DNA from: a virus
Lineage: Duplodnaviria; Caudoviricetes
Strand: one strand, 5' to 3'
Virus record (IMG/VR): IMGVR_UViG_3300012862_000048
Coordinates: 1 to 28,879 of that record
Length of the DNA: 28,879 nucleotides
The position numbers and the translations under genes are program-made. A model generated the notes under the pieces. The model had not been told where the DNA came from and did not search any database. It saw only the letters and a program-made list of their open reading frames with translations. Positions 2,644 to 28,879 of this stretch are shown in pieces (within the stretch, counting starts at the first letter, position 1; the number at the start of each line of letters is the position of its first letter).

Positions 2644-2719
2644 GGGCCTATAGCTCAACGGTTAGAGCAGAGGACTCATAATCCTTTGGTTCCAGGTTCG
2701 AATCCTGGTGGGCCCACCA
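2644..2719 (+). tRNA. ileX: tRNA-Ile2 (anticodon CAT, lysidine type); integration target
   Basis: 76-nt cloverleaf GGGCCTA...TGGGCCCACCA, anticodon arm GAGGA-CTCATAA-TCCTT, TTCGAAT T-loop, encoded CCA. Sequence and position near rpoD match Ile2; no initiator features. Confidence 0.9.
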
Positions 2720-2787: not shown

Positions 2788-2896
2788 GCGTCCAGCGGTG
2801 TCCAGTGGCATCCACTTGCATCCACGAAAAAAGTGAGTCAGGCTGTGTGTCAGCGGGCTAGACGCCCCTAGACGACTCACAGGCGCTCGACTCACA
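2788..2896. promoter_or_regulatory. att-arm recombination sites: phased candidate RDF sites and integrase arm-type repeats
   Basis: TCCA at 2791, 2801, 2811 and 2821 (exact 10-bp period); GTGAGTC (2833) and GTGTGTC (2845) facing inverted GACTCAC (2874, 2889). Confidence 0.65.
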
Positions 2897-4110
2897 TGCT
2901 GACCGACACCAAGTTGCGCTCGCTCAAGCCGAAGGCCAGTCCCTTCCGTGTGGCTGATGCCAACGGCTTGTGCATCGAAGTGCGTCCATCGGGAGCCAAG
3001 GTCTGGCGTTACCGCTATCGCTACCTGGGCAAGGCCAGCATCGTCACGCTTGATGAGTACCCCTCAATGTCGCTGCAGGCTGCTCGCGTCGAGCGCGACC
3101 GTCTGCGCTCATTGCTGCGCGGCGGGGCAAATCCTGCTCAGGTGGCTCGGGTGGAGAAGGCCGCACACGGCGAGCGGTCCGCCAACACCTTCAGTGCCAT
3201 CGGCCTTGAGCTGCTGGCAAAGCGCACCAAGGAGGGGCTGTCTCCCGGGTCGGTCGTGCGGGAGCGCAGGCTGATCGAGAAGGATCTGGCCGGGCTGGCG
3301 GATCTGCCTATCGGGGACATTACTGCTCCGGTTCTGCTAGCTGCACTCAGGAAGCTGGAACAGAGGGGCGTAGTCGAGACTGCCCATCGCGCCCGGGCCC
3401 ATGCCGGCCGAATCTTCCGCTATGCCATCGCCACCGGTCGTGCTGATAGGAATCCGGCCCAGGATCTAACAGGGGCGCTCGAGCAGCCGCAGACGAAGCA
3501 CTTTGCGAGCGTGACCGACCCCGCCGTCATCGGCGATCTCTTGCGCGCGCTGTGGGGCTATCAGGGAGCACTGGTCACTCAGGCGGCCCTGAAGCTGGCC
3601 CCTATGCTGTTCGTTCGTCCGGGCGAGCTGCGCCAAGCGAAGTGGGCCGATATCAATCTGGATGCAGCGGAGTGGCGCTACGTCACCAGCAAGACCAAAA
3701 CCCCGCACATCGTCCCGTTGTCCGACCAGGCCGTCGAAGTCCTGCAGGAGCTTTACCCGTATACGAAGCGGAGCGAGTTCGTCTTCCCTGGCGTGCGCAG
3801 TGCGCTCAAGCCGATGAGCGAGAACACGATGAACGCAGCGCTCCGAAATCTTGGCTTCGACTCAGACACGATGGTCGGCCACGGCTTCCGCGCAATGGCT
3901 AGAACGGTGCTGGACGAGGTTCTTGGCTACCGCCCGGACTACATCGAGCATCAGTTGGCGCATGCCGTGAAGGATCCGCTCGGGCGGGCCTATAACCGGG
4001 CAACCCACCTGCCGGAACGCCGGAAGATGATGCAGGCCTGGTCTGACTATCTCGACCAGCTGCGCGTTGCAGAACCGAACGTGCTGGCCTTCAAGGCCAA
4101 GCGCGCCTAA
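2896..4110 (+). CDS. int: P4-family tyrosine integrase
   Basis: Arm-binding N-terminus (MLTDTKLRSLKP...GLCIEVRPSGAKVWRYRY); catalytic R (RPGE), K, HGFR, LAH and Y (AYNR); adjacent to the tRNA. Confidence 0.96.
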   Translation: MLTDTKLRSLKPKASPFRVADANGLCIEVRPSGAKVWRYRYRYLGKASIVTLDEYPSMSLQAARVERDRLRSLLRGGANPAQVARVEKAAHGERSANTFSAIGLELLAKRTKEGLSPGSVVRERRLIEKDLAGLADLPIGDITAPVLLAALRKLEQRGVVETAHRARAHAGRIFRYAIATGRADRNPAQDLTGALEQPQTKHFASVTDPAVIGDLLRALWGYQGALVTQAALKLAPMLFVRPGELRQAKWADINLDAAEWRYVTSKTKTPHIVPLSDQAVEVLQELYPYTKRSEFVFPGVRSALKPMSENTMNAALRNLGFDSDTMVGHGFRAMARTVLDEVLGYRPDYIEHQLAHAVKDPLGRAYNRATHLPERRKMMQAWSDYLDQLRVAEPNVLAFKAKRA

Positions 4111-7303: not shown

Positions 7304-7530
7304 CTTCCGATGCTATCCGAGCCGGCCGAGTGGCTGCCAGGGGGCGGACCTTGATGCGCCTACCCGAGGTAGTCGCGGCCTGCGGTATATCCCGCTCCCT
7401 CATCTACAAGATGGCGAAGGAAGGCCAGTTCCCCGGGCCCATCCGCGTAGCTGCCCGTCTGTCCGCCTGGGACTCGGAGGCTGTGCAGAGCTGGATCGAC
7501 TCCCGCTGCGAAGAAGGGAGGGCGACCTAA
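7300..7530 (+). CDS. alpA: Second AlpA-family excisionase/regulator
   Basis: LMRLPEVVAACGISRSLIYKMAKEGQFPGPIRVAARLSAWDSEAVQSWI; AGGAGG RBS before the ATG at 7300. Confidence 0.9.
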   Translation: MTSDAIRAGRVAARGRTLMRLPEVVAACGISRSLIYKMAKEGQFPGPIRVAARLSAWDSEAVQSWIDSRCEEGRAT

Positions 7531-8225
7531 TGGCTACTGGAATCGTCCACGTAGAGTTCCACGGGGCCGAACTGATCGGCCGACTCCATCAGGGACAGCC
7601 CTTTGTGGCGATGCGACCCATTGTGGAGGCCATGGGCTTGGACTGGTCCAAGCAGCTGGACAAGCTGAAGTCCCACCCGGTGCTGGCCCGCCAACTGTCT
7701 ACCTTAAGGGGGATGGTTGCTGGCGATGGCAAGGGCCGCCAGATGCAGGCGCTGCCCTTGTCCAGGCTTCCGTTTTGGCTGGCCACGGTCAATCCCAACA
7801 AGGTGAAGGCAGCGATCCGGGAACGAGTGATTCTGTTTCAGGAGCAGGCGGCCGACGCCCTTGCAGCTGCGTTTTTGTCGAATGGGGAAAGGCGTGATGC
7901 GGCAATGGCAAAGCGCGTCGCAGGAACCGTCATGTGCCGGATCTTGCACGACACGCTGGTGGGCCTCGGGAAGGACCCGAAGGGCTATGACTACGCGACA
8001 GAGCATCGTCTGGTGAACCACTGCATCACCGGCATGTTCCAGGGCGTGTCCGAGGACTCCCTCTCGACTGACCAACTGAAGCTGCAGCAGGAGCTGCGGA
8101 TGCAGAACGCCGTATGGATCGGGCAGGGCATGGCCTACCGGGATCGCAAGCCTCTCCTCGAACAGCACGCGGCAACCTGGTGCCGCACTCAGCACATTGG
8201 CTTGGAGGCTTCCAATGGCCACTAG
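7530..8225 (+). CDS. Phage antirepressor (P22 Ant N-terminal domain) protein
   Basis: VEFHGAEL...PFVAMRPIVEAMGLDWSKQLDKLK...LPLSRLPFWLATVNPNKVK matches P22_AR_N. Confidence 0.85.
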   Translation: MATGIVHVEFHGAELIGRLHQGQPFVAMRPIVEAMGLDWSKQLDKLKSHPVLARQLSTLRGMVAGDGKGRQMQALPLSRLPFWLATVNPNKVKAAIRERVILFQEQAADALAAAFLSNGERRDAAMAKRVAGTVMCRILHDTLVGLGKDPKGYDYATEHRLVNHCITGMFQGVSEDSLSTDQLKLQQELRMQNAVWIGQGMAYRDRKPLLEQHAATWCRTQHIGLEASNGH

Positions 8226-9404: not shown

Positions 9405-9555
9405 AGCGGAGCGCGCTTCTACTGCTTCAAAGCACTGTCTTTAGGGCTTAGAGCCTGGGCGGCCGTTTCGCGGGCAATTCGGTGCATTGAACTGACCGGT
9501 TCGCGTGAGGGACTGGTTCGCCAGGCGGACGGCCAGCGGCATAGGGAGGGCGCCT

Positions 9556-10302
9556 ATGGCAGCCCGAGACCATGAGCGCTACGTGGAGCTGGTGCTGCTG
9601 TCGGACGACTCTGTCGACTTGGTAGTGAGGGCCATCGCTGGCGCATTTGGTTTCGGGGTGCCCACACGGCCCGCAGTCCGGCACGCGTCAAGGCGGAGAT
9701 CCAGCGAGGAGTCCTGTCCGGATGAAGGCGCGTACCTGCCCATCCATCGGGTGCACTCGATTGAGCAGGCCGCATCCAAGTACCTACCGGCGCAGGCGGC
9801 GGCTCGTAAACAAGCGCTAGAGACATTCAGCCCGAAGGATCGCCAAGCGGTGCTGGACTTTGACCATATGGCGGTGATGCGCTCCCCGGCCGCGGCTGAT
9901 CGCACTCGCCAGCTAAGGGGCTGGAAAGCACAAGGCTCGCTGACAGCTGCGCCTGCCAAGGGGCCGAGTAGGCTGGTGCTGCACGCATTGGCGGACGCGC
10001 AGCTGGACGGTCCTCTAGGTGCCTGGCTGATGCTGTATGCGATTGGAGACCAAAGGGAGTGGTCAGTGGTCTGTCGACACATGACCGCCTGCGGGCACCC
10101 CGATTGGGCTTCACTCGAAGCAGCTAGGAGACTGCTAGCCGGATGCCACCAGCAGTCCTATCGGGAGTCGGCCAAAGGCCACGCCCGCCAAGAGGCGCGA
10201 TTTCGTCGCGAGGTGCAATCGGCTGAGAGGCGCCTGCTTGAATGGCTGGCTCGCGCCAGCCGGAGAGTTGCCGCCGCGATGGGCTCTGCCTGCGAGCAGT
10301 AG
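9556..10302 (+). CDS. Hypothetical protein, candidate late-gene regulator (Q-like position)
   Basis: GGGAGG RBS; C-terminal HTH-like segment (SYRESAK...RFRREVQSAERRLLEWL); lies just before the terminator-gated operon. Function is inferred. Confidence 0.55.
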   Translation: MAARDHERYVELVLLSDDSVDLVVRAIAGAFGFGVPTRPAVRHASRRRSSEESCPDEGAYLPIHRVHSIEQAASKYLPAQAAARKQALETFSPKDRQAVLDFDHMAVMRSPAAADRTRQLRGWKAQGSLTAAPAKGPSRLVLHALADAQLDGPLGAWLMLYAIGDQREWSVVCRHMTACGHPDWASLEAARRLLAGCHQQSYRESAKGHARQEARFRREVQSAERRLLEWLARASRRVAAAMGSACEQ

Positions 10303-10496: not shown

Positions 10497-11048
10497 ATGC
10501 CACCAATCATTGTCGACAATGCGATCTCCGATGCGCCGGGCGTCCGGGCGGCGGCAATGCGCGCGCAGTACGTGGACTGGCCCGGCCATGACGGTGAGGT
10601 CTACAAGCGGGTGTCGCTGACGCCGGTTCCTGGGCTGCAGGAAGCCATCGAGGCGCAGCTTGGCCCGGTGGAGATGCTGGGCATGGGCTACCGGCTCAAC
10701 TTCGATGGTGAGCTGCCCAACGCTGCGATCCACTCTGATATGGGCTGGGGGACGCACGCCGCCGTGCTGTACTTGAGCGAAGGCGAGGGCGGCACTGCGT
10801 TCTGGCAGCACAAGGCCACTGGCGCCACGCGCATCGATCCGGGCGACGTGGCTCTGTTCGCGGCCATCGAGGGTGATTGGGACGCTGCTGATCGCTGGGA
10901 GCAGACCGGCCTGGCGGAAATGAAGATGGGCCGCATGGTGATCTACGAATCGGCCATGTTCCACAGCCGCTGGCCTTTTGCCGCTTTCGGCACTGACTAC
11001 GAATCTGGCCGCCTGGTTGCGGTGGCCTTCTTTACTCCGAGGGGCTGA
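10497..11048 (+). CDS. 2OG-Fe(II) oxygenase-like protein (DUF6445-like)
   Basis: HxD (IHSD), AAVLYL, GGTAFW, distal H (MFHSR) and R (GRLV) of the double-stranded beta-helix fold. Confidence 0.78.
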   Translation: MPPIIVDNAISDAPGVRAAAMRAQYVDWPGHDGEVYKRVSLTPVPGLQEAIEAQLGPVEMLGMGYRLNFDGELPNAAIHSDMGWGTHAAVLYLSEGEGGTAFWQHKATGATRIDPGDVALFAAIEGDWDAADRWEQTGLAEMKMGRMVIYESAMFHSRWPFAAFGTDYESGRLVAVAFFTPRG

Positions 11049-11497
11049 TGACCACGATCCGCAAAGCAACTCTGGCCGATGTGCCGGAGATCGTCCGCAT
11101 GTCCGCAGCTTTCTACCCGACAACGCACTACGCGCAGTGGTGCGAGATGGACGAGGACAGCGTGGCCGGCCTTGCCACTGGCCTGATCGAGAACGACGTG
11201 TTCTTCGTGGCCGAGAGTGACGGCGCACTGGTTGGCATGGTCGGCGTGATGCTGGTCCCGTTCCTGTTCAACCGCGACCACCTGTTCGCCACTGAGATCG
11301 TGTGGTGGGTCGCCCCGGAGTCGCGCGGTACGTCGGTGGCCGCCCGCCTGCTGGACGTGATCGAAGCCCCGTGCCGCGAGCGTGGCGCAGCTCGCATCCA
11401 GATGGTGCATATGCCCAACAGCCCGCCACAAGCCGCCGCTCTGTATGAGCGGATGGGCTATGCGCGCTCCGAAATCTCCTACACGAAGGATCTCTGA
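11048..11497 (+). CDS. GNAT acetyltransferase in the phage virion-assembly position
   Basis: IRKATLADV, WWVAPESRGTSVA (motif A), LYERMGY (motif B); TGATG coupling. Confidence 0.88.
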   Translation: MTTIRKATLADVPEIVRMSAAFYPTTHYAQWCEMDEDSVAGLATGLIENDVFFVAESDGALVGMVGVMLVPFLFNRDHLFATEIVWWVAPESRGTSVAARLLDVIEAPCRERGAARIQMVHMPNSPPQAAALYERMGYARSEISYTKDL

Positions 11498-11499
11498 CA

Positions 11500-12249
11500 A
11501 TGGCCGCTATCACCGCAGCAGCAGTGGTCGGCGCCGGCATGGCCTATTCGGCCAATCGCCAAGGCGCCGCACAGAAGAAGGCGGGCCGCGCCCAAGCAAG
11601 CGCAGCCCAGCAGACGCTGGACACCCAGCAGGGCATTTACGACCAGTCGCGCCAGGAGGCCATGCCGTACCTAGAGGCGGGTAACAACGCCCTGACCGGC
11701 CTGAACGCCTTGGCGGCTGGCGACTACTCAGCCTTTGAGAACTCGCCGGACTACCTGTATGCCCAGCAGTCGGGGCTTGCAGGTCTGGACCGTAGCGCGG
11801 CGGCGCGCGGCGGCCTGTACTCCGGCGGCGCTGACGCTGATCGCATCGCCCTGTCCTCGGGGCTGGCCACGCAGAATTTGGGCAACTACCGGAACTCGCT
11901 GATGGGCCTGGCCAGCATGGGTCAGAACCAGAGCCAGTACCTGGGCCAGCTCGGACAGAACTACGGCAACCAGTTCGCCAATGCCATGGGCATCAAGGGC
12001 AACGCACTGGCCCAGATCGCGTCTGCAGGGCCGATGACGCAGGCGGGGTATGGCAATGCCTTGGCAGCGGCAGCCAGCACCTATGCAGGGGCGGCCGGTG
12101 GTGGCGGTAACGGACTGTCCGGCTGGCAGCCATCGTCTGCTTGGGGTCAGTCAGTCACCGCGTCGCCAGGATCCAATCTGGGTTTTGGCAACAACATGCA
12201 GAATTTCCTGGCCTTGGGTAATGGCCGCAAATCCAGCTTCGGCGGCTGA
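11500..12249 (+). CDS. DNA ejection protein, P22 gp7-like
   Basis: Hydrophobic Ala/Gly N-terminus, Q-rich helix, PYLEAGNNAL, SAAARGGLYSG motif, G/N/Q-rich tail; first of three ejection-type genes. Confidence 0.8.
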   Translation: MAAITAAAVVGAGMAYSANRQGAAQKKAGRAQASAAQQTLDTQQGIYDQSRQEAMPYLEAGNNALTGLNALAAGDYSAFENSPDYLYAQQSGLAGLDRSAAARGGLYSGGADADRIALSSGLATQNLGNYRNSLMGLASMGQNQSQYLGQLGQNYGNQFANAMGIKGNALAQIASAGPMTQAGYGNALAAAASTYAGAAGGGGNGLSGWQPSSAWGQSVTASPGSNLGFGNNMQNFLALGNGRKSSFGG

Positions 12250-12260
12250 GGGAGCTAGCA

Positions 12261-13778
12261 ATGGCAGACTACCAACAGAATCTCCTGGCATCTCTCCAGG
12301 GCGGCTTGAACTTCGGGCAGCAGATAAAGAAGCAACGCGACACCAACCAACTGAACCAGCTTGCTTCCCTCTCCTACAGTGCGCCGATGGAGCAGCGGAA
12401 CTCGCTTTTGGGACAGATGGCGGCAATCGATCTAGAGGCTGCCCAGCAGCAGCAGAAGGCGTTCGTAAGTGACGATGATCGCCGTACCACCACGATGGTA
12501 AACATGGCCAAGCTGCTTACGACCATGCCGCCAGAGGCCCGAGAGAGCCTGTACAACAACCGGATGCTCCCCGAGCTGCAGAAGATGGGGGTGTCTGGCG
12601 CCCCTCGGTGGTCCCCTGAAACCGAGGCGGTCATTATGAAAAGCGCCAATGACCTCTACATGGCTGGCACCGGCGGGCAGATGCCGACGGATGTTCGGTC
12701 CTTCCAGATGATGACTGCAGGTCTTTCGCCGGAGGATCGCGAGAAGGCCCGCCGGATCAACCTCGGCTTGGCAGGCCGCGAGTCCTCAGCGGCAATCACC
12801 TATCAGAAGGTGAGGGGGCCTGATGGGCTGGAGCGGCTGGTCGCCGTTGACCCGCGCCAGATCGGGGCGCAGGTTGTTGGCGATGGATCAGGGTATGGCT
12901 CATTCGCCAGCCAGCAACAGCCCACGATTTTCCGTGGGGCGGGCGGCGAGGTGGTCGATGTTTCCCAGGTGACCGAGCCGGGGCTTCGCGAGGCAATTAT
13001 GCAAAACCCCACCGCGTGGGGTCTGGTTCCCGATGGCGGGTCGGTACAGATGCCCGACCGGATGGTAAATGCCCCGGGTGGCCCCACCATGAACCCGTTC
13101 GTTGGCCGAAGCCCAGAGGATCAAGCGGCTCTCACGGAGGCAGCAAAGGCCGGAGTCGAAAACGCGAACTTCCCCAACAGGCTTTCCCAAGAGCGTCAGT
13201 TGCAGGACGTCAAGACTCAGGGGGCGATCACCCAAGCGGCCGGCACAGCGGCAGCGGAGGCTCAGGCGAAGGATGCCTCGCAGCGCCCCAAGCGCATCCA
13301 GCAATACAGGCAGGCTCTTTCCTCGGCCGGGAATGTCGAGACGTCTTTGGACAAGGCTCTTGGCCTTCTGAGCCCGTACTCGACTGGCTTCGTAGGCGCG
13401 CGCTCTCGTGGAGTTGAAGGGAGCCCGTCCTACAACCTGGCTGCGGAGCTGGAAACGATCAAGGCCAACCTCGGCTTCGACAGGCTGCAGCAAATGCGCG
13501 ATTCGTCGCCCACCGGCGGCGCGCTTGGCGCTATTGCCGTGCAGGAACTGGTGGCATTGCAGTCCACGATTGCCAATCTCGATCCAAATCAGTCCGAAGA
13601 CCAGATCCGAACGAACCTTGATCGGGTAAAAACGCACTACAAGAACTGGCGTTCTGCGGTTCAGCAGTCCCTTGCTGATGAGGAGCGCGCCCAATCAGAG
13701 CGGCCAGCCGCATCGCCAGCGGCGAGAGCTCCGGCAGCTGCCTCATCCGCCTCCAGTTACAGCAACCTTTGGAACTGA
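12261..13778 (+). CDS. DNA ejection protein, P22 gp20-like
   Basis: 505 aa, Q/A-rich and helical; LASLQGG N-terminus; C-terminal SPTGGALG..ELVALQ..LDPNQS segment and SYSNLW ending resemble gp20-type proteins (from memory); synteny. Confidence 0.72.
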   Translation: MADYQQNLLASLQGGLNFGQQIKKQRDTNQLNQLASLSYSAPMEQRNSLLGQMAAIDLEAAQQQQKAFVSDDDRRTTTMVNMAKLLTTMPPEARESLYNNRMLPELQKMGVSGAPRWSPETEAVIMKSANDLYMAGTGGQMPTDVRSFQMMTAGLSPEDREKARRINLGLAGRESSAAITYQKVRGPDGLERLVAVDPRQIGAQVVGDGSGYGSFASQQQPTIFRGAGGEVVDVSQVTEPGLREAIMQNPTAWGLVPDGGSVQMPDRMVNAPGGPTMNPFVGRSPEDQAALTEAAKAGVENANFPNRLSQERQLQDVKTQGAITQAAGTAAAEAQAKDASQRPKRIQQYRQALSSAGNVETSLDKALGLLSPYSTGFVGARSRGVEGSPSYNLAAELETIKANLGFDRLQQMRDSSPTGGALGAIAVQELVALQSTIANLDPNQSEDQIRTNLDRVKTHYKNWRSAVQQSLADEERAQSERPAASPAARAPAAASSASSYSNLWN

Positions 13779-13781
13779 CTA

Positions 13782-16337
13782 ATGGCCAAGAAATGGGTTG
13801 AGGTAGCGGCTTCGCCTGCCTATCAGGCGCTAGCACCGGAGCAGCAGGAAGAGGCTCGGAACCAGTACTGGAACGAGGTGGTCGCGCCAAACGTTCCGCA
13901 GGCAGAGCATGCCTATGTTCGGCAGGCCTTCGATTCCGACACCAGTCGCACGGTGAACTGGCCAGGGCAGGCGCCGCTTGAAGCCGAGATCGTGGGAGGC
14001 ACACGCCAGAGCGCGACGCAGCAGGCTGCGCCGGCCCAGCAGCAGCCGCAGACCGCCCCGGATGGCTGGGAGTATGGCCCTCTGCGCGACACCATGTTCG
14101 GCGCACGATCCGTCCTGCAGGGCCTGGGAGGCCTTATCGGCGCAGTCGGCGGCGACGCTGGCAACTATGCGCTGGTGAATCCGATCCTGCGCGCCGTCGG
14201 GGCGCAGCAGGTTCGTCCGTACCGGGAGGAATTTGGCGCCCTGGCCGATCAGCTTGGCCTGCCCAAGGCGCAGACCTCCGGCGACCGCGTGCTGGGTGAC
14301 ATTGGCGAGGCGCTGACCGGAACCGGCCTGACGCTGGGCGCTGGTGCTGGCCTGAATGCGCTAGCGAACATGGGTAGGGGTGCCGCAATCCGCACCCCGG
14401 GCTATGTGGCTCCGGTAGAGAACAGGCTGGCGAACTTCCTGACGGCGCAGCCCGGCTTGCAGACCGTCTCTGCCGCCACGGGCTCCGGCGCATCGTCCAT
14501 CAGCCGAGAGTCTGGCGGATCGCAAGGCAACCAGCTGCTGGCTGGTCTTGCGGGTGGCCTGGGGCCGGGTCTCGTCACGGCGGGTGGCGCAGCGGGCTTA
14601 CGCGGGGTGGTGCGCGGCGGATCTGGCGAGAACATGAAGAACCGTTTGGCCGACTTCAACGCACTGGGAGCGCAACCGTCCGTAGGTCAGGCATCGGGCA
14701 ACCCTATGGTGCAGGGGTTGGAGAATCTTCTGGCTCAGGGTCCCACCAGTTCGGGGGTCATGGCTCGGGCTGCGGAGCGTCAATCGGGCGAGATATCCAG
14801 CGGCTTGGGGAAGATGGCCAACGACTTCTCGCGTAGCGCTAGCGGCGAGCGTGCAGGCCGGGCAATCAAGCGTGGGATCTACGACGAGGGCGGTTTCAGC
14901 AGCCAGTTTAAGGCGACGCAGGATCAGCTCTACGACAAGGTTGACGAGTTGATTCCCCCCGCCCAAGGCGTGGCAATGGGCAACACCCGCGCCACCTTGG
15001 ACTCCCTCAGTAATCCGATCAAGTCTCCTGGAGCACCGAATACTGCTCGACTGTTCCAGAACGGGCGCATTACCGGAATTGGGAATGCTGTTGAGGCGGA
15101 CTTGGCGATTCCCACCCCCCAGCAGTTGTCGCTTGATGAGGCGGTTGCCAAGGTCAATCAGCTCTATGCATCGCGTGACTCTGCCTCTCAGGATGCTGGG
15201 CGGTTCGCTGCCTTTGCCAACGACCAGGCCAATGCTGCGCAGCGGTACTTCCCCGTGGCTGGGCAGCCCCGATTCCCCGGCCGGTATACACCGGCCCAGG
15301 CAAACGTTGCTCCGGGCCAGCAGGCCGCAGCTGAGGCCACCGAGATCGCGCGAGACCGTGTTTCACAGGCCGCAGAGATCGAAGCGACCATTGGCGACCT
15401 GACTGCTGCTGCGGAACGCGCCGGCGGCCGACTGCCATATGAGGCCGTCAAGAAGCTTCGCTCCTTGGTGGGAGAAGAGCTACAGGATGCCGGGCTAGCG
15501 TCCGATTTCCCCAGGTCCAAGTTCAAAGCCCTATACGCGGCTCTATCGGAAGATCTGGGTGTCGCCGCTCAGGAAGCTGGCCCGGAAGCCGTTGCGGCCT
15601 ACAGTCGGGCCAACGCCTACACCCGCGCTGGTATGCGTCGCATTGAAGACATTGAAAGCGTGATTGACCGTGCCGGCGGCGCTGAAAAGGTGTTTTCGTC
15701 GCTTATGGCCACTGGCAAGGAGGGTGGCTCCACACTGCGGTCCGTTCTTCAGTCACTGCCCGTCGAGAGTCAGCGGGCCGTTACCGCCGCCGCCATCAAG
15801 CGCCTCGGGAGAGCAAGTCCAGGTGCGCAAGACGCAACCGGTGAGGTGTTCAGTGCCCGGACCTTCCTCACCAACTGGAACAACGTCAGCACCGAGGCCC
15901 GCCGCGCGCTGTTCGACCGCTACGGAAAGGGTTTCAGCGAGCAAGTGGATCGCATCGCAAAGGTGGCCGACATGATCGACAAGGGCGCCGGAGTCTTTAA
16001 GAACCCGCCTGGCACCGCCAAGAGTCTGGCTGGCCTGACGTATGGCGCGTCGCTGGTGGGAAGCATGTTCACAGGCGGAACGGCGCTGCTCCTCGGAGCG
16101 GGCGTCAGCGCAAATGCAGCTGCCCGGTGGCTCACCAATCCGCGAGCAGTGAAGTTCTTGGCCAACGCCACCACGCTTCCTAAGTCTCAGATCCCTTCGT
16201 TCATCAACTATGTCGCGCAAGAAGGGCAGAAGACGGGTGACCAGGATTTGCAGGATCTAGCCAAAGTACTTGGCAACGCGGAACAGGAAGTAGCCAACTC
16301 CTCCGACAATCGCAACGACACGGACAACCGGCGTTAG
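13782..16337 (+). CDS. Large DNA ejection protein, P22 gp16-like
   Basis: N-terminus MAKKWVEVAASPAYQALAPEQQEEARNQYWNEVVAP closely resembles the start of P22-like gp16 variants as I recall them; Gly/Ala-rich hydrophobic segments; 851 aa. Confidence 0.78.
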   Translation: MAKKWVEVAASPAYQALAPEQQEEARNQYWNEVVAPNVPQAEHAYVRQAFDSDTSRTVNWPGQAPLEAEIVGGTRQSATQQAAPAQQQPQTAPDGWEYGPLRDTMFGARSVLQGLGGLIGAVGGDAGNYALVNPILRAVGAQQVRPYREEFGALADQLGLPKAQTSGDRVLGDIGEALTGTGLTLGAGAGLNALANMGRGAAIRTPGYVAPVENRLANFLTAQPGLQTVSAATGSGASSISRESGGSQGNQLLAGLAGGLGPGLVTAGGAAGLRGVVRGGSGENMKNRLADFNALGAQPSVGQASGNPMVQGLENLLAQGPTSSGVMARAAERQSGEISSGLGKMANDFSRSASGERAGRAIKRGIYDEGGFSSQFKATQDQLYDKVDELIPPAQGVAMGNTRATLDSLSNPIKSPGAPNTARLFQNGRITGIGNAVEADLAIPTPQQLSLDEAVAKVNQLYASRDSASQDAGRFAAFANDQANAAQRYFPVAGQPRFPGRYTPAQANVAPGQQAAAEATEIARDRVSQAAEIEATIGDLTAAAERAGGRLPYEAVKKLRSLVGEELQDAGLASDFPRSKFKALYAALSEDLGVAAQEAGPEAVAAYSRANAYTRAGMRRIEDIESVIDRAGGAEKVFSSLMATGKEGGSTLRSVLQSLPVESQRAVTAAAIKRLGRASPGAQDATGEVFSARTFLTNWNNVSTEARRALFDRYGKGFSEQVDRIAKVADMIDKGAGVFKNPPGTAKSLAGLTYGASLVGSMFTGGTALLLGAGVSANAAARWLTNPRAVKFLANATTLPKSQIPSFINYVAQEGQKTGDQDLQDLAKVLGNAEQEVANSSDNRNDTDNRR

Positions 16338-17670: not shown

Positions 17671-17712
17671 CACAGGAGTCCTCACGCGACTCAATTTTGA
17701 GTTTTGCTTTGA

Positions 17713-20036: not shown

Positions 20037-20105
20037 TTCTGCCCTTATCGAAGGATATCTGTAGCGCTGGATTCATTAGGCGGGAAGTTGAGGGAAAGCG
20101 TCGCT

Positions 20106-21074: not shown

Positions 21075-21171
21075 CTGTGGCGTGCAAGATGAGATCGGCT
21101 GAGTGTAGCGCTGGCGCCAGACTTCGGCAGCGCCTGAAGAGAGCTGATGTCCCAAATAGGATTCTTTCTAA

Positions 21172-21459
21172 CTATGTGACAGGATCGAAGGGCATGATCC
21201 CAGCCGCCTCGTTGATTTGCGCCCCAATCGTCCTGAGGCCACGTTGCAGTGCCGCATTGAAGTCAACGTGGCCAGTCGAGGCATGATGATCCGAGATCTC
21301 GGGCAGCATCTGTGCCCACAGTAGGGCCATTGTTTCCGCTGCTGGGTGTGCCGCGATTGCCGCCCGGAGGCCGTACTCAAGAGCCTTGATGTATCCCAGT
21401 TGGGCGGCAAGTTCTGCTTCAACGCCGGCATGGGCGCCGGCAACGCTGGGGGTGTCCAT
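21172..21459 (-). CDS. Hypothetical helical protein (95 aa)
   Basis: GGAG RBS before the ATG at 21459; host-like codon usage. Confidence 0.6.
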   Translation of the reverse strand: MDTPSVAGAHAGVEAELAAQLGYIKALEYGLRAAIAAHPAAETMALLWAQMLPEISDHHASTGHVDFNAALQRGLRTIGAQINEAAGIMPFDPVT

Positions 21460-21525
21460 GTGAGCTCCCATCGACAGTGAGTGGAATAACGGCAATAGTG
21501 GGTTGGCCCCATATGGACCCGAGCT

Positions 21526-22140: not shown

Positions 22141-22303
22141 GGGCTCATAGCGGGGCAGCGCGCTACATGTCGGCCGATGCCTCGACAGCCAGGCGTCAGA
22201 CGAATCGTAGTCACCTGGGCGAAGTCGCCCCGGCATCCGCGCTCAGGGTGAGGTATGAGATTTGCTGATAACCTCGTGTCGAATCCTGTATAGGCAGCAA
22301 TCC

Positions 22304-23132
22304 GTGATTGATGACCCGCTTCCGCAGAGTTGGAAAGATCTTCAGGATGGTGTGGCACGTATATTCACAAATCTGGGCCTCATTGCTGATACCGAGGTTA
22401 CAGTGGAAACTTCGCGGGGCTCCGTAACTCTGGATGTCTTGGCATTGGATTCCGCTAGTCTTGATAACATTAAATACGTTGTTGAGTGCAAGAATTGGGG
22501 TTCTGCAATTCCTCAGTCGGTAGTGCATTCGTTTACAACGGTGATGCATGAGACGGGGGCCAATATTGGATTTATTGTTTCAAAGGTAGGGCTGCAGTCA
22601 GGCGCGGAGCAGTACACGGCGAATACCAATATTTCAGGCCTTACCTACTTGGAATTTCAGCAGCGATATTTCAATTCTTGGTGGTATAGATATTTCTGCC
22701 CGTTGGTGGGGGACGCGGCTGATAAGCCGCTGCAGTTCATCGAGCCGATCAATTCTGCAAGGGATAGGGCATGCAGCGATCTGTCAGCAGAAAAGAAGGC
22801 TGAATTTGATGCTTTGAGAGAGCAAAATGGCATCTTGGTAATGATGCTATCAATGTTGAATATTGGATCTATTGCCCCCCCATCTGGCGACAGCCGATTT
22901 TCAACATCCGCCTCCTAGTATCGAAGAATTTAAACTCTCGGTGGCATCTGTCGCGCCTCACGTCACCCTTAGCGCCGCAAGCTATAGAGGCATCATGCAC
23001 GAGCTGATTGACTATCTGGGGGACTTGTCCGTTCAGTTTGACGCTATTTTGGGGTTCGAATTGTTCCCCGGCGACCTCTCCTTGACGGGGGTCACTCTCA
23101 GGGGCCCGCCTGGTAACAGGCCTCGGAGATAG
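22304..23132 (+). pseudogene. Mrr-like PD-(D/E)xK restriction endonuclease, frameshifted in a C7 run
   Basis: DVLA...VVECKNW catalytic motif and GLQSGA. The frame stops at 22918, but removing one C from 22875-22881 joins it to ORF 22863..23132. Confidence 0.72.
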
Positions 23133-23261
23133 GGTTCCGGCGTTCTAGAGCCTCCCGTCGCGTGAGCGCGCGGGGTGTCAAGGCTGGCAGTGGCTCTCGA
23201 TTTCGGGATAGCATCCCGTCCCCCTCTGGCGGTGCCGGGGCAATTGGATACACTACCCCGC

Positions 23262-23936
23262 ATGACGAGCATCACCATCCCCGGTGGCCTGCTGGTTGCC
23301 ATCGAGGGAATCGATGGGGCCGGCAAGTCGACCTTGGCCAAAGGCCTGACCGAGCGGCTGCGCGCCCATGGCGTGGCCGTTTCGACCAGTAAAGAGCCAA
23401 CCAATGGCCCCTGGGGCGCCAAACTTCGTCAATCCGCCGAATCCGGTCGTCTGAGCCCGGAGCAGGAGGTCGAATACCTGCTAGCGGATCGTCGCGATCA
23501 CGTCGAGCAGTTCATTGAGCCAGCGCTGCAGCGCGGTGAAGTGGTGATCTTGGACCGTTACTTCCCGTCCATGGTGGCCTACCAGGGCGCCGCTGGGCTG
23601 CCCATTGAAGACCTGTCGACTGCGAACGACTTCGCGCCGCGGCCGCACCTGATGCTGCTACTCGACGTAGAACCGGCCACAGGGCTGGAGCGGATCCGTG
23701 CACGCGGTGACCGCCCCAACCACTTCGAGAATGAGGAGAATCTGGCCATGTGCCGGCAGATATTCCTAGGCATGGCGGAGCGATCTAAGGTGGTGGTGGA
23801 CGCATCTAAGCCAGAAGCAGACGTCCTCGAGGACTGCTACGCACGGCTGGTGGTCCTGTTCGCTCAGAACGTCGGTAACCTGTCGCTGGAGAACATCCAG
23901 AAGGTCGGCGCGCTGATGGAAGGGCACTTGGCTTAA
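23262..23936 (+). CDS. tmk: Thymidylate (dTMP) kinase, accessory copy
   Basis: IEGIDGAGKST P-loop, KEPT, ADRRDH, VILDRY and AYQG motifs. Confidence 0.9.
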   Translation: MTSITIPGGLLVAIEGIDGAGKSTLAKGLTERLRAHGVAVSTSKEPTNGPWGAKLRQSAESGRLSPEQEVEYLLADRRDHVEQFIEPALQRGEVVILDRYFPSMVAYQGAAGLPIEDLSTANDFAPRPHLMLLLDVEPATGLERIRARGDRPNHFENEENLAMCRQIFLGMAERSKVVVDASKPEADVLEDCYARLVVLFAQNVGNLSLENIQKVGALMEGHLA

Positions 23937-23990
23937 GCCAGTCAGCTCGCAATCGCAGTCTCTGCGACTCCCGGCCGTATTCTTACGGCC

Positions 23991-24497
23991 ATGCTCCCCT
24001 CGATTGGCTACCAAGGCTTTCGCACCGCCCCCATCCCGTCGGGTTGGGTGCAGATGGGTGACCGCTGGGCACTGTGGTGGAACGGGCGCGAGGTGGCCAG
24101 CGTCACCTCGGCCCGCGAGGGTGGTTACCGCCTCCATCTGGACGCCCTGAAGATGTGGCAGACCAAGAACGCCCCAGTCGCCAGCATTCTCCAGGGCAAG
24201 CGCTTCGCCGAGCGTTGGTGCGCCGCCAGGCTGTACCCGGGCCTGCCGCTGCGAGAGGCGGTCGTCCGCCTGACCGACAGCACACCCATCAAGCCGGCGC
24301 CACCGCTGCCTGGCTTGCCGCCTACTCCTGAGCAACAGCAACAGGCCGAACGCCTAGGCGCGGCGGCGGCTGCAGCATCGGCCCGCGTGATGGCCGCATT
24401 GGAGCCGATCCAGCCGCCGACGGAGATCAAGCCCAGGGCAAAGGGGCCATGGAAGGGGAGAATCCGACCCAGCAATGCCGATTTCTCAAGGGTGTGA
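23991..24497 (+). CDS. Hypothetical Trp/Pro-rich prophage-type protein
   Basis: Clean ORF with host-like codon usage; TATTCT lies 7 nt before the ATG. Confidence 0.7.
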   Translation: MLPSIGYQGFRTAPIPSGWVQMGDRWALWWNGREVASVTSAREGGYRLHLDALKMWQTKNAPVASILQGKRFAERWCAARLYPGLPLREAVVRLTDSTPIKPAPPLPGLPPTPEQQQQAERLGAAAAAASARVMAALEPIQPPTEIKPRAKGPWKGRIRPSNADFSRV

Positions 24498-24563
24498 CCA
24501 TTCCCTTGGTCGTCGCGGGGGCTACTCTATTCGTCGCGAAGGCTGGGGTGCTGCAGGGTCACG

Positions 24564-24761
24564 ATGAGATTGATGACGCCCGAGCGGTGGCTAGACCGCT
24601 ACTTCGAAGAGGGCAGCCGCCCGTCCATGCAGGTTCTGCAGCGACTGCTGCGCGAAGGTAAGCTGCCCGGCCGCAAGGTCGGCGGTGCCTGGTTCATCGA
24701 CGAACACGAATGGCTGGCGAATGGCGACGATCTTGTCCTGAGGGTCTTGAGTAGTTCTTAA
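24564..24761 (+). CDS. Excisionase-like wHTH protein
   Basis: 65 aa; LMTPERW...PSMQVLQRLLREGKLPGRKVGGAWFID, a lambda-Xis-like pattern. Confidence 0.75.
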   Translation: MRLMTPERWLDRYFEEGSRPSMQVLQRLLREGKLPGRKVGGAWFIDEHEWLANGDDLVLRVLSSS

Positions 24762-24924
24762 GGCTGGAGGCAGTCCCGCCGCCTGGCTTCGGCATCGCCT
24801 TGGGTTCGGAGCTATAGCCATGAATTGGCTCCGCATCCAATGAGGGGTAGCATCCGCTCAGGCAGCCACGCCGGCTGCAGGACGCCCTCTTGGGGATGAC
24901 CCCAGAGGCAGGGGAGTGGGGGCA

Positions 24925-25569
24925 GTGAAAGGATTTCTGATGCTCTTTCTGGGGCTGGCATTGGCGTGGGCAAGCGTGGCTGATGCGCGCGGCGTTCGGG
25001 TCAGCGGTTACGTCAAGAAGGACGGGACCTATGTCGCCCCGCACTACAGAAGCGCTCCGAATCGGTCGACGCAGGACAACTACTCAACGCGGGGGAACTA
25101 CAACCCCTATACGGGCCAAGCTGGCAAGAAGGATCCGTACGCGCTACCTCCGCCGAGGGGAGGATACGGATCCGGATACGTGCCCAGTGCCCAGGCGTCG
25201 ACCTATTCCCAACCGGTCTATAGGAGCCCTTCGGCTCCGACGGAACCGACTACATATCGCTTGGCAGACTCCAGCGGCGGCTGGCCCAGGTTCAACGCGC
25301 CGGCCATCGCAAGCCCGGAGAGTGTGGACGATGCGGAACGCTACGGTAGTGGCCGCTCTAACTATCTGGCGTCGGCGGTCGGAAGTCTCTGCAACGAGTT
25401 CTTGCTAGCCGCTGATGAGATGGCCAGGTCGGCAGAGACCTTGGCCAAGTGTGCTTCGCGGATGGATCCCAGGCAGACCTGCGCAGTCGAGGCTGATGAC
25501 GCTATGCAGTCGTCCATTCGATACCAAGTCAGCGCAAGCAAGGCACAGAGTTACTGTCGCGGGCCGTAG
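24925..25569 (+). CDS. Secreted protein with a GYxRxDGTYV-type N-terminal module
   Basis: Signal peptide (KGFLMLFLGLALAWASVADA), VSGYVKKDGTYVAPHYRSAPN...NPYTG, P/S/Y-rich linker, four-Cys helical C-terminus. Confidence 0.7.
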   Translation: MKGFLMLFLGLALAWASVADARGVRVSGYVKKDGTYVAPHYRSAPNRSTQDNYSTRGNYNPYTGQAGKKDPYALPPPRGGYGSGYVPSAQASTYSQPVYRSPSAPTEPTTYRLADSSGGWPRFNAPAIASPESVDDAERYGSGRSNYLASAVGSLCNEFLLAADEMARSAETLAKCASRMDPRQTCAVEADDAMQSSIRYQVSASKAQSYCRGP

Positions 25570-25591
25570 CAGATCGATTGGAGGAAGCGCC

Positions 25592-25876
25592 ATGTCTAGT
25601 GAAGATTGCACCGTACCGTGGGAACTGAGGGCAATCGGTGCACATGACGTCGGGATCCTTTTAGGCTTGGCGCCACGCACGGTCCTAGAGACCGTCGCCT
25701 GCAGGCCGGATTTCCCTTTGCGTGTATCAATGCGGCCAGCGACTTGGGTTGCAGGAGAGGTTCTCAAATGGAGGGACGAGAACAGGGGCATTCCGAAGGG
25801 CCGGAAAGGCAAGCGGAGCAGTGCATCGGCCGCCGCCGCTAAGCCTGCCGCGCGTCGGTCCGCCGGCGACCCTTAG
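25592..25876 (+). CDS. AlpA-like excisionase
   Basis: GGAGG RBS; IGAHDVGILLGLAPRTVLETVACRPDFP...ATWVAGEVLKW. Confidence 0.7.
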   Translation: MSSEDCTVPWELRAIGAHDVGILLGLAPRTVLETVACRPDFPLRVSMRPATWVAGEVLKWRDENRGIPKGRKGKRSSASAAAAKPAARRSAGDP

Positions 25877-26165
25877 TTCTCCGGTTCGTCGGTGCCAAGA
25901 GGGCCGCAAGCCTTTCATCGGCCGAGCCAGGGCGGGGGACTGATTGGGATGTTCTTGGTGCTGCTTGCCCTACTGCCGATGCCCGCCGCGAGCGCTCCCA
26001 CCAATCCTCAAGATCGGCCGGGTGAATGCGATCCGACCTGGCACTAGCTCCTAGCCGGACAGCCACAAGTTGGCCTGCGTCTATGGCTCTTCGAATCGTC
26101 TTGGGCGAGCAGGCGCTGCATTCTGCCGCCTCGGCAATCGTCATCAGCCTTCCAGACAGGGCCAC
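25839..26165 (-). CDS. Excisionase-family HTH (HTH_17-like)
   Basis: LMTIAEAAECSACSPKTIRRAIDAGQLVAVRLG...RIHPADLEDW; GTG start overlapping the upstream stop. Confidence 0.8.
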   Translation of the reverse strand: MALSGRLMTIAEAAECSACSPKTIRRAIDAGQLVAVRLGASARSDRIHPADLEDWWERSRRASAVGQAAPRTSQSVPRPGSADERLAALLAPTNRRTKGRRRTDARQA

Positions 26166-26530
26166 TAGCGCTTCCCCTGGCGCTGTTCATGGCGCCGCAG
26201 TCGGGCCAATGCCTCCGCGACCTGGGGCGAGGTGGTCCCAGCCGAAGGAGCGGAAGTGACCGCGCTCCGCGACTTCCAGCTGCCCGAGTCGTGGATTGCC
26301 CTGTACAGCTCGCTCTTCTCGTAGAGCTTCTTCCCCATGAACTGTCTAGGAGAAAGGCCGCACTCTCCGGCCTTCGAATTGAACTGGCTGACTGACACGC
26401 CGCAGTAGTGCGCGGCCTCGTCCACGGTTAGCCAGTCCTTGCCAGAAAGGTCGATCCGCAGGGCGGTCAGCTGCTGCCTCAGCAGGGCGATCTCCTGCTC
26501 AAGCAGCAGTTCGGCTGGCAACTCGTCCAT
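26165..26530 (-). CDS. Excisionase-like HTH with N-terminal coiled coil
   Basis: AGGAG RBS before the ATG at 26530; WLTVDEAAHYCGVSVSQF...GKKLYEKSEL. Confidence 0.72.
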   Translation of the reverse strand: MDELPAELLLEQEIALLRQQLTALRIDLSGKDWLTVDEAAHYCGVSVSQFNSKAGECGLSPRQFMGKKLYEKSELYRAIHDSGSWKSRSAVTSAPSAGTTSPQVAEALARLRRHEQRQGKR

Positions 26531-26602
26531 GGCGTCTCCTCTGTCTGTACCCGAGAGTAGCGCCCTGCGGCATGATCGGCACAGGCCACTCTGAGATGTC
26601 CG

Positions 26603-26803
26603 ATGAATGGGCAAGTGCTTTCGCGCGATGAAGTCGAAGAGATCACTCGAACTCCTATCAGGGTGCGGCAGTTGGCCTTCTTCACGCAGAATCGGATCCC
26701 TCATTACATCAACGAGTACAACCGGGTGATCGTGCTGCGTAAGGCCGTGGGAGCGCCAGAGAGGCCTGACGCGCCTAGGCCCGTGTGGCGTTCTAACAAG
26801 TAG
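26603..26803 (+). CDS. DUF4224-family excisionase-like protein
   Basis: LSRDEVEEIT......QLAFFTQNRIPHYINEYNRVIVLR. Confidence 0.75.
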   Translation: MNGQVLSRDEVEEITRTPIRVRQLAFFTQNRIPHYINEYNRVIVLRKAVGAPERPDAPRPVWRSNK

Positions 26804-26810
26804 GTTTGAA

Positions 26811-27035
26811 ATGTCTGAAAAGCTCTGCCTGACCAAGGACGAGATCAAGGCGCTGACGCGTACACCTCTAAAGGCGCGACAGCTCCAGTTCCTTCGCCAG
26901 AACGGCATCCGCCACTACATCGATGGGTACGGGTGGCCGGTGGTCCTGCGGGCCGCAGTGGGCATCGACGAGCCGGCGCCGGCTGTCAAAGCCGTCCCGT
27001 GGCGATCCAACAAGCTCGGGCCACTTCCTGGCTGA
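26811..27035 (+). CDS. DUF4224-family excisionase-like protein (divergent tandem paralogue)
   Basis: LTKDEIKALT......QLQFLRQNGIRHYIDGYGWPVVLR; shares TRTP and WRSNK with the upstream copy. Confidence 0.78.
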   Translation: MSEKLCLTKDEIKALTRTPLKARQLQFLRQNGIRHYIDGYGWPVVLRAAVGIDEPAPAVKAVPWRSNKLGPLPG

Positions 27036-27139
27036 TCGGCCAAGCAAACGAATTTCAAACCCATAACACGATAGGGAGGGGCATCAGCCTCTCCTCTATG
27101 CCGGCGCAATGCCGGCTCCCTACTGACTAGGAGCCTATC

Positions 27140-27235
27140 GTGTTCATCGAACGATCCAATTCCCCCCTCGAGTACCTGGCCGCCTTCGCGGTCGTCTTCA
27201 TGGCAGGCGTTCTGGCAAGCAGTCGCTCGACCTGA
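27140..27235 (+). CDS. 31-aa hydrophobic peptide, candidate type I toxin (below the ORF-track size cutoff)
   Basis: AGGAG RBS plus GTG; MFIERSNSPLEYLAAFAVVFMAGVLASSRST*; SD lies in a hairpin; terminator directly after. Confidence 0.55.
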   Translation: MFIERSNSPLEYLAAFAVVFMAGVLASSRST

Positions 27236-27241
27236 CGATCA

Positions 27242-27275
27242 GCCGGGGCGCATTTTTTGGCCCCGGCCACTTTTT
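27242..27275 (+). terminator. Intrinsic terminator
   Basis: GCCGGGGC-10 nt-GCCCCGGC then CACTTTTT. Confidence 0.65.
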
Positions 27276-27329
27276 AACTAGTTCCTCCCCTCTGAAAAGT
27301 TAGATCCCGGCTGAATTTTGGGTCAAATA

Positions 27330-27362
27330 AATCAATGGCTTACGCACTGTATTTTTCTACAG
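27330..27362. promoter_or_regulatory. IHF consensus (27330-27342) and E. coli-type SOS box (27347-27362)
   Basis: AATCAATGGCTTA matches WATCAANNNNTTR; CTGTATTTTTCTACAG matches CTGT-N8-ACAG. Confidence 0.5.
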
Positions 27363-27433
27363 GGGGCTAAATGGATGGTTCTGCCAGCGCTTGGTTCGTA
27401 GGCTCGTCCACACACCACAGACGGCCAGGCGTC

Positions 27434-27664
27434 ATGCAGAACAACTCACCAAAACCACTCCGAATGCTCCGTCGGGCAGAAGTCCAGGCTCGCTTGGGCA
27501 TCGCACGATCCACGCTGTACGGCTACCTCAACAAGCGCTCGCCGAGCTACCTGCCGTCCTTCCCGAAGCCGCTTCGCTTGGGAGCGTCAGTCCTGTTCCT
27601 TGAACATGAAGTTGATGACTTCGTTGTGGGCCTGATTCAGGCCAGGGAGGTGGGGCGCCGCTAG
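27434..27664 (+). CDS. alpA: AlpA-family regulator/excisionase
   Basis: MLRRAEVQARLGIARSTLYGYLNKRSPSYLPSFPKPLRLGASVLFLEHEV. Confidence 0.9.
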   Translation: MQNNSPKPLRMLRRAEVQARLGIARSTLYGYLNKRSPSYLPSFPKPLRLGASVLFLEHEVDDFVVGLIQAREVGRR

Positions 27665-27799
27665 CCCTAAATTTCCTAGATCGACGCCGATCTTAGCCCC
27701 CTGCATGGGCTGGAAACGGCACGTGTGCTGGGCATCTTCTTACATTGGCTCAGTAGGAATAAACACTGTTACTCCTGACCTCCAGTAGGAGGGATGGGG

Positions 27800-28879
27800 A
27801 TGGCAACGACAATGAAAACACCATTGAAGAACAACAGCAGTTTCATGCGCGAACGCGCTTACGTTTGGGGTGAAGACGGCACCCTCTTCATCACCCACCA
27901 GTTGAACGCAGTCTTAGAGGTCAAGCGTATTGTCGAGATGATGGGTAAGCTAATGGCAAGCCGTAAGGCGCCGTTCGGAGTCATGACGAAGCACGGCCGC
28001 GAGTGGGTTGAAAAGACCGAGCTGGGCGATTCCATCCTGCTCTGCCTCAAGTCCGGTCTCCGGGAAATTGATGAGCACTTCCCCGCTCACCGCCATAGCC
28101 CGCTCTTTACCCTGTTCAAGCGTTTCCTCGGTCCGTTCATGTTTCTGGGAGGCAAGGCTTGGCCGGAGGACGTCCCGCGCCTCAATGCTGCGGTAGCGAA
28201 GATCCGGGCCTTCGCAAAGGGGGAGGCCTTAGGCCGCCGTCTGGGCAACCTGAAGCGGGCGGAGCGCGAGAACGCTAAGTCTTGCAAACGACTGCTCAAG
28301 GCGCTGCGGGCACGCTACTCCAAGCTGCTGGTGGTTCGCCTGGACCTGGAATACTTCTCGAACTTCTGTCCAGGGAGTGGCTTCAGGGGGCAGGCAATGA
28401 CCTTGAAGGACGCGCAGACCCATCGTGATCGCTTTCTAGACCATCTCCGCAAGGGGGCGTATGCCGAACACCTCGCAGGTTACATGTGGAAGATGGAATA
28501 CGGCTTGGAGAAAGGCCACCACTTCCACATGGCTATCTTCTTCGACGGGCAGCGTGTGTCTCGCGACATCGTCCTCGGGGACTTGCTGGGCCGCTATTGG
28601 CAGGAGAAGGTAACCGCCTCCAAAGGCATGTTCTTCAACTGCAACAAGAAGAAGGACGCCTATGATCGTTGCGGCATTGGCATGGTTAATCGCGGGGACG
28701 ACGAGAAGTGGGTGTGCCTGGAAGACGCGCTGCGCTACTTGACGAAGGTTGATCTGTACCTGCGCTTCCGACCCGAAGGTCGCGCGCGCACGTTCGGGTT
28801 GGGCGGTCCGTACGGTGGGATCAAGGCTGGTCCGGCCCTCGCGCCCTCTTTGGGGCTGGAAACTAGGGCTTCCGCCTAG
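27800..28879 (+). CDS. YagK/YfjJ (inovirus Gp2-like) protein, HUH-like
   Basis: YSKLLVVRLDL, GYMWKMEYG..KGHHFH.AIFFDG and YLTK motifs; AGGAGG spaced for the ATG at 27800; follows alpA. Confidence 0.82.
   Translation: MATTMKTPLKNNSSFMRERAYVWGEDGTLFITHQLNAVLEVKRIVEMMGKLMASRKAPFGVMTKHGREWVEKTELGDSILLCLKSGLREIDEHFPAHRHSPLFTLFKRFLGPFMFLGGKAWPEDVPRLNAAVAKIRAFAKGEALGRRLGNLKRAERENAKSCKRLLKALRARYSKLLVVRLDLEYFSNFCPGSGFRGQAMTLKDAQTHRDRFLDHLRKGAYAEHLAGYMWKMEYGLEKGHHFHMAIFFDGQRVSRDIVLGDLLGRYWQEKVTASKGMFFNCNKKKDAYDRCGIGMVNRGDDEKWVCLEDALRYLTKVDLYLRFRPEGRARTFGLGGPYGGIKAGPALAPSLGLETRASA

Follow-up and report, generated by a model that had tools for sequence, protein, structure and literature searches.

Seven small genes at the far end of a tRNA-Met island

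The window analysed here is a 28,879-nucleotide stretch of viral DNA (Caudoviricetes; IMG/VR record IMGVR_UViG_3300012862_000048), designated G000:C21 in our comparison set of 147 genomes of the genus Stenotrophomonas, in which the window's own genome is G000. It carries a genomic island whose left end (the attL side) is marked by a tRNA-Met(CAT) gene (2644..2719, + strand). A one-base-shorter copy of the 3' end of this tRNA lies ~710 bp past the end of the window (window-equivalent 29591), and such a far-end copy is also found in 6 related islands. Thus, the island is ~27 kb long and a cluster of seven small genes (24564 to 27664) sits at its far end, 21 kb away from the island's own P4-type tyrosine integrase (2896..4110, +; Pfam Arm-DNA-bind_3, Phage_int_M and Phage_integrase). 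A sequence-only reading of the window had described these genes as orphan excisionases from several families, collected to act in trans on other elements. Our analysis indicates that six of them, here called x1 to x6, are a panel derived from five temperate-phage integration modules, with x2 and x4 assigned on weak profiles.

All seven frames are open, as had been claimed. The first, x1 (24564..24761, +; 65 aa), is excisionase-like by its match to a PHROG excisionase profile (E 1e-5), with HTH_17 below cut-off; its earlier label, lambda-Xis-like, was not shown directly. The AlpA-like excisionase x2 (25592..25876, +; 94 aa) has no Pfam match, its profile matches the GIsul2 excisionase 8c3t (E 0.0098), and JGI names its homologues AlpA. 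On the opposite strand, x3 (25839..26165, -; 108 aa) is an HTH_17 excisionase (E 3e-9; TIGR01764 above cut-off), and x4 (26165..26530, -; 121 aa) is excisionase-like with an N-terminal extension and weak matches (HTH_17 E 0.013; PHROG_66 E 5e-4). Both x5 (26603..26803, +; 66 aa) and x6 (26811..27035, +; 74 aa) score above the DUF4224 cut-off and match PHROG excisionases (E 2e-12 and 1e-19, respectively). By profile, x3, x5, x6 and the last gene of the cluster are strongly supported, x1 moderately, and x2 and x4 weakly. The excisionase fold was recovered for x6, whose structural model (predicted local distance difference test, pLDDT, 71) has the Xis-type winged-helix order strand-helix-helix-strand-strand-helix; among its 21 listed structural neighbours, BldC and known excisionases account for 8, at low Z (2.0-3.7). 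The x2 model was poor (pLDDT 63), and the structure search gave no clear match for it.

The seventh gene, an AlpA (27434..27664, +; 76 aa; PF05930 E 1e-8), lies outside the captured panel. As the sequence-only reading had suspected, it belongs with the downstream YagK/YfjJ family gene (27794..28879, +; Pfam) in an AlpA-YagK module: all 8 distinct copies come from loci that hold YagK or are cut just there, and islands without YagK also lack this type of AlpA.

Between the divergent x4 and x5 lies a 72-bp gap (26531..26602) with a motif conserved, by alignment, in the islands that bear x5 and x6. This gap may hold candidate promoters; the promoter scan found no sigma-70 consensus sites, including in the gap. 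Several genes had been credited with clear ribosome-binding sites, which by motif score is true of x2 and x4 (GGAGG) and not of the others. Profile-profile comparison found the families only distantly alike, except for the x5/x6 pair and the two AlpAs. Sequence searches of the PDB with the x4, x5/x6 and x1 profiles returned summed repeat artefacts or nothing, and the GenBank phage collection yielded matches to two genes only, that at 23991 and, weakly, x3.

When the same profiles were run over the rest of the 4.25-Mb genome, the only matches were a diverged DUF4224 gene and the pair of AlpA-like genes of the island itself. This near-absence elsewhere means that the cluster exceeds chance. Contigs of three other sequencing runs each span it. 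Judged by eye, without a Pfam scan, the 124 unassigned small open reading frames (ORFs) near clusters gave no sign of another excisionase family. One isolated DUF4224 gene, garbled in its central part (G000:C18:362912-363109, -), lies just 3' of a tRNA-Val(CAC), with no integrase nearby, and looks like a true decayed relic.

Phage origin, selection and capture of the panel

Relatives of the six genes outside such islands sit beside phage integrases, an arrangement that the sequence-only reading had proposed to look for. For x1, this was directly before the integrase at 26/26 loci, leaving out one weak match below the score limit; for x3, it was 18/18 loci, 17 of them found with the integrase as query. 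The x2 relatives were beside an integrase at 10/15 loci; 2 of the loci are cut at contig ends, and L154, an ambiguous locus, is not counted. In phages, x2 relatives are convergent with the integrase and overlap it. For x4, 31/35 viral loci had the integrase alongside and 2 were cut at contig ends, and for the DUF4224 type (x5/x6) all 21 non-cluster loci in the 147 genomes did. The phages concerned integrate at tRNA-Pro(GGG) (x1), mostly tRNA-Leu(TAA) (x3), tRNA-Arg(CCT) (x4), and tRNA Lys, Cys, Leu or Gly sites (DUF4224). Their copies of the panel genes end an early operon, and the upstream DNA in the islands is unrelated; the C-terminal motifs common to phage and island copies are kept. The closest case is x1, which is 85-92% identical to its nearest phage copies, with a core 92% identical to working ones; a podoviral prophage with the island's DNA-ejection gene has an Xis to which x1 is 88% identical. 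Some x4 relatives have no downstream integrase (L416:3800-7260; L414:6995-7276; L105; L360-L363); they belong to other islands or to other genera, one of the latter lying next to pieces of the ejection gene, and possibly show the same strategy elsewhere.

The panel varies between strains. The largest of the island's ejection genes occurs in 23/147 Stenotrophomonas genomes, and in 9 of these it lies in a tRNA-Met island whose integrase is at least 80% identical to that of the window. All nine islands carry x3 and most hold further panel genes. Four islands with related integrases and no ejection gene had no panel gene in the stretches of up to 20 kb examined, and partial panels without the ejection gene were found in G102, G088, G119, G115 and G069. 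Over 57 island-type loci (25 from genomes or IMG/VR and 32 from metagenomes, one window-identical locus being left out and near-duplicates remaining), 15 panel combinations were seen, with the full six in 5 loci. Cluster content thus differs between strains, the second comparison that the sequence-only reading had proposed.

The genes are nevertheless maintained. The core was intact in 133/142 distinct copies and broken in 8/142 (intact/broken: x1 8/1, x2 22/1 with one more cut, x3 41/2, x4 36/4, x5 13/0, x6 13/0); intactness was scored on the core only, some tails being shortened, and identical sequences were counted once. Among integrase-less copies, the ratio of nonsynonymous to synonymous polymorphism (pN/pS; independent pairs) was 0.11, 0.17, 0.35, 0.24, 0.17 and 0.10 for x1 to x6, and 0.24 when pooled. 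Each value is far below neutral, and similar to or under that of the integrase-linked copies. These ratios point to purifying selection on the panel genes in the absence of an integrase. In the x3 tree, 15 integrase-less copies, including that of G053, form one clade (89/93), and the copies with an integrase fall among phages in two places. The x1 island copies lie inside a phage clade, the x2 tree requires at least 3 label changes, and in a quick tree the x4 island rows stand apart from most phage rows. The trees fit an old capture followed by fresh recaptures.

An integrase is sometimes captured too. Six loci carry x3 with a whole integrase that has intact catalytic motifs (pairwise pN/pS 0.05-0.22), and three islands carry an x4-type integrase; as G128 belongs to both groups, there are 9 whole captured integrases in 8 distinct loci, all with intact catalytic motifs and low pN/pS. 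In the 7 whole ones checked, phage similarity stops at the stop codon. No tRNA-end copy follows the stop codon in these 7 or in one broken captured integrase, whereas most phage copies have one. Integrase fragments also occur in related islands (G053, G028, L327 and L329). Since related islands hold whole or partial integrases, the panel genes came from xis-int cassettes, captured without the attachment (att) site.

This origin bears on whether the genes are neutral leftovers of prophages that stacked and then decayed at the island's end. The integrase fragments, the 8 broken copies and other prophage-end genes nearby are what such decay would leave. In contrast, the pN/pS values, the old island-only lineages in the trees and the tight packing of x4-x3 and x5-x6, with no other early phage genes, do not suit it. 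Nor do the window's own contents: tblastn with five cognate integrase types found no remnant in 16400-29700 (best E ~0.1), and no tRNA-end copy lies inside the cluster. A derivation from stacked decayed prophages is thus largely refuted by the sequence comparisons, and we regard it as very improbable. The sequence-only reading was right that no integrase or fragment adjoins the cluster in the window, but some related islands carry the att-less integrases described above. Its central proposal, that recombination directionality factors (RDFs) of phages were gathered into a panel, is supported by the integrase-adjacent relatives, the selection and the lack of a cognate att site in cis.

Two further observations concern other islands. 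Small tRNA-Leu(TAA) islands have a second, x4-type integrase (L275:12954-15000 in G052; L277:10300-12500 in G013) with intact motifs but lacking x4, and the G052 one has no evident att copy of its own. A tRNA-Arg(TCT)-like copy lies within island cargo in the G018 island (~12665-12737) and at L140:9032-9090.

Candidate helpers and possible action in trans

The island carries an oxygenase gene, a GNAT gene and three P22-like DNA-ejection genes (10497..16337, +; Pfam and PHROG profiles), and a podoviral prophage of Stenotrophomonas has the same block in identical order. The oxygenase and GNAT are 80% and 72% identical to those of the G093 prophage, and the largest ejection protein is 77% identical to its counterpart in the G052 prophage. 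We examined 16 ejection-gene loci outside islands, leaving out two more G078 contig copies and two small fragments. An integrase is visible at 13/16, and 10 of these 13 use modules of the panel: x1 (3), x3 (2) and DUF4224 (5). One such prophage, with x3 and its integrase, has the ejection protein 77% identical to that of the window. For scale, the five cognate integrase types amount to ~75 loci against ~800 tyrosine recombinases in 146 genomes (G130 left out), XerC/D not counted; this total includes non-phage elements. As these prophages use the same modules, they are candidate helpers.

Xis, together with its cognate integrase, excises a prophage, and it disfavours integration. We hypothesize that the panel acts in trans, excising co-resident prophages, predicted podoviral helpers among them, and we put the probability of this reading at about one half. 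Because no att site lies in cis and the island already has an AlpA-like gene of its own (7354..7530, +; profile match to the 27434 AlpA, probability 98%), action in trans is the simplest explanation. Productive excision is favoured by the occasional retention of whole, catalytically intact xis-int pairs, by the near-identity of x1 to working copies, by the retained terminal motifs, and by EcCIMP1, the E. coli MP1 island discussed below, in which this layout was shown to serve helper excision. Our model suggests that the trigger would be activation of the island, or its entry into a lysogen. The panel would then pair with the integrase supplied by the prophage, or in some islands by the captured copy, and free whichever helper type is present. 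The island antirepressor, where present (7530..8225, +; P22_AR_N / Ant; Pfam E 2e-33; PHROG 524), would de-repress the freed helper, and helper re-integration would be disfavoured simultaneously. Through repeated capture, the panel would stay in step with the temperate phages present locally.

Alternatively, the genes might have been co-opted to regulate transcription (of the island, phage promoters or host genes) or to give the island integrase additional directionality factors. Their fold is common to regulators such as BldC and P2 Cox, and the available text on Cox describes dual roles (PMC3936717). However, the island already has its own AlpA-like genes, a second frame lying near 6876-7052, the panel content is variable, and solely xis-position genes have been collected, at times with their integrase. 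Co-option is therefore a rather improbable explanation.

The sequence-only reading had also suggested that the genes evict co-resident prophages or block lysogeny, and as a standing effect this did not hold. Elsewhere in panel-bearing genomes, 1-2 cognate integrases were observed against ~2.8 expected (P 0.21-0.46), in a test of little power on few, related genomes with approximate background counts. Cognate prophages are thus neither depleted nor enriched. G040 even combines the island x4 with a separate prophage locus at tRNA-Arg that holds x4 and its integrase; in G018, a truncated integrase lies at tRNA-Arg. Constant eviction by the panel is not supported. An anti-lysogeny device, expressed in the resting host, would prevent incoming temperate phages from integrating, or would cause the loss of repressed prophages by cutting them out. 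Such a role would suit the position of x4/x3 and x5/x6 outside a phage early operon, with their own upstream DNA, the reach of the panel to phages without the ejection gene, the known effect of Xis on integration, and the defence-like cargo that the cluster adjoins. In contrast, the coexistence in G040 and the counts of cognate integrases speak against it, and whole captured integrases would be useless for a block; we consider it unlikely. The genome's one prophage-like region (G000:C13:207693-209059) has, by eye, a distant DUF4224-like gene before an integrase, and is a possible target for x5/x6.

Several points weigh against excision in trans. The ejection gene was present in 4/20 sampled module-bearing phages (0/5 x2, 1/5 x4, 1/5 x1, 2/5 x3), so the panel is not helper-specific and would reach non-helpers, and no x2-type helper was found among the loci examined. 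Neither an integrase of the four types searched nor, at cut-off, a DUF4224-linked one was found in the window's genome, and cognate prophages, as seen above, are not enriched beside the panel. The antirepressor is present in 2/9 islands. Excision does not explain the three islands that hold the x4-type integrase without an intact x4, and some of the divergence scored as selection may have arisen before capture. A prophage that is intact supplies Xis itself. In EcCIMP1, the extra excisionase gene alpA_1 made a difference only with the phage xis deleted, according to the available text (PMC11773190). Mobilisation of this capsid-less, satellite-like island by podoviruses sharing its ejection genes is itself a prediction. 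Finally, core identity of x2-x6 to the nearest phage copy is 67-81% and tail identity 31-38%, so that specificity may have drifted.

DNA-binding cores so much more conserved than the tails would also be expected of dominant-negative decoys, which would bind att arms or int/xis promoters without forming a productive complex, delaying excision of a helper or competitor. Consistent with this, two non-cognate excisionases cut helper yield in a xis mutant, in the part of the EcCIMP1 study available (PMC11773190). Against decoys stand the x1 core, so close to working phage copies, the retained terminal motifs and the six loci where x3 is accompanied by a catalytically intact integrase. Thus, decoys seem a good deal less probable to us than excision in trans, which remains our preferred reading.

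A satellite-like island and its relation to known systems

The island integrase, the satellite context, the link to podoviruses and the published single-gene precedent were not part of the sequence-only reading. Profiles made from the G052 prophage found no capsid, portal or terminase in ten such islands. A candidate terminase at 21526-22140 had a single weak PHROG match (E 2.5e-4) and was not taken as real. Two traits of phage-inducible chromosomal islands (PICIs) occur here, an integrase at a chromosomal att site with a flanking repeat and an AlpA 3' of the integrase. No primase was recognised among the island ORFs scanned with Pfam, PHROGs and NCBIfam, several of which are unannotated, and for this reason we term the island PICI-like only. 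An HNH gene lies between the antirepressor and the oxygenase, as does a conserved island gene (9505..10302, +; ESM Atlas row 8, score 0.92), for which an antiterminator Q is a weak lead. A prophage-end gene (phrog_26768; 23991..24497, +) lies just upstream of x1. 

Several other features of the island deserve mention. The cargo at 18511-23936 is defence-like, with a DUF6932 gene (PADLOC PDC-M63A match) and its neighbour, a DUF4238 gene, and also holds an Mrr-type nuclease and a second dTMP kinase. The conserved island gene at 16896-17597, 3' of the ejection block, belongs to no known family; a role in packaging is a guess. Downstream of x6, a leader (27050-27236, +) is 92-98% conserved across related islands, and its fold (z -2.6) covers the ribosome-binding site of a hydrophobic ORF of 31 codons that starts at 27141. 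Its stems are conserved, without compensatory changes. No Rfam family matched it, or anything else in 16000-28879, and the window has no informative repeats. We take the leader and ORF to resemble a type I toxin mRNA, and they might serve to stabilise the island.

The nearest precedent is EcCIMP1. In the available text (PMC11773190), alpA_1 lies at the far end of this PICI on the opposite strand and supports excision of the helper, not of EcCIMP1 itself; its authors found just one earlier report of trans-acting excisionases. Both elements are of PICI type, with an integrase, an AlpA, an antirepressor and DNA-transfer genes like those of podoviral helpers, and without capsid or terminase. Both also have extra excisionase genes in opposite orientation at the far end, their service to helper excision having been tested in EcCIMP1. 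By inference from this likeness, the panel may work as alpA_1 does. The two differ in that EcCIMP1 has one extra gene of the AlpA family and a primase, whereas the Stenotrophomonas island has six genes from five modules and several protein families, strain-variable and repeatedly captured, sometimes with att-less integrases.

Other systems share fewer of these features. Like the phage RDFs (lambda and HK022 Xis, TorI, P2 Cox, RdfS and the GIsul2 excisionase), which figure among the structural neighbours of the x6 model (Z in the range given above), the panel proteins are small winged-helix proteins with relatives in the xis position; unlike them, they are uncoupled from an integrase, an att site and a phage early operon. 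The PICMIs (phage-inducible chromosomal minimalist islands) of Vibrionaceae are satellites with an integrase and an AlpA that excises the satellite itself. Six divergent PICMI elements have 2-3 alpA copies, but these are of one family and are ascribed to repeated integration and recombination in the text available (PMC10803314), and the PICMI primase and fis site are absent from the Stenotrophomonas island. The EPIP satellites of Mycolicibacterium also induce excision of a resident helper prophage; their mechanism is given as unknown, and they differ in having a serine integrase and a tape-measure protein and no antirepressor, with no excisionase panel mentioned in the portion of the report available (PMC12822802). 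The literature searched, with few subscription papers and no supplements, contained no multi-family excisionase panel. Compared with alpA_1 of EcCIMP1, the panel is new in scale, diversity and turnover.

Excisionases are usually viewed as parts that each serve, in cis, the one element that encodes them, and the cross-talk known so far comes from single cases. On a satellite, a panel that is under selection, spans several families and varies between strains implies an evolved strategy of acting on the recombination of other elements. The result also supports DUF4224 as an excisionase family, indicates an undescribed family of ejection-protein satellites in Stenotrophomonas, and offers ready pairs, x1 for example, with which to test the control of prophage excision and lysogeny. 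More tentatively, and with the odds against it, these islands could be a satellite family with updatable master keys, which would recapture excisionases and some att-less integrases and excise unrelated prophages, mobilising helpers and removing competitors. If true, this would be a new layer of lysogeny control, and the gene content of the islands would record past encounters with phages.

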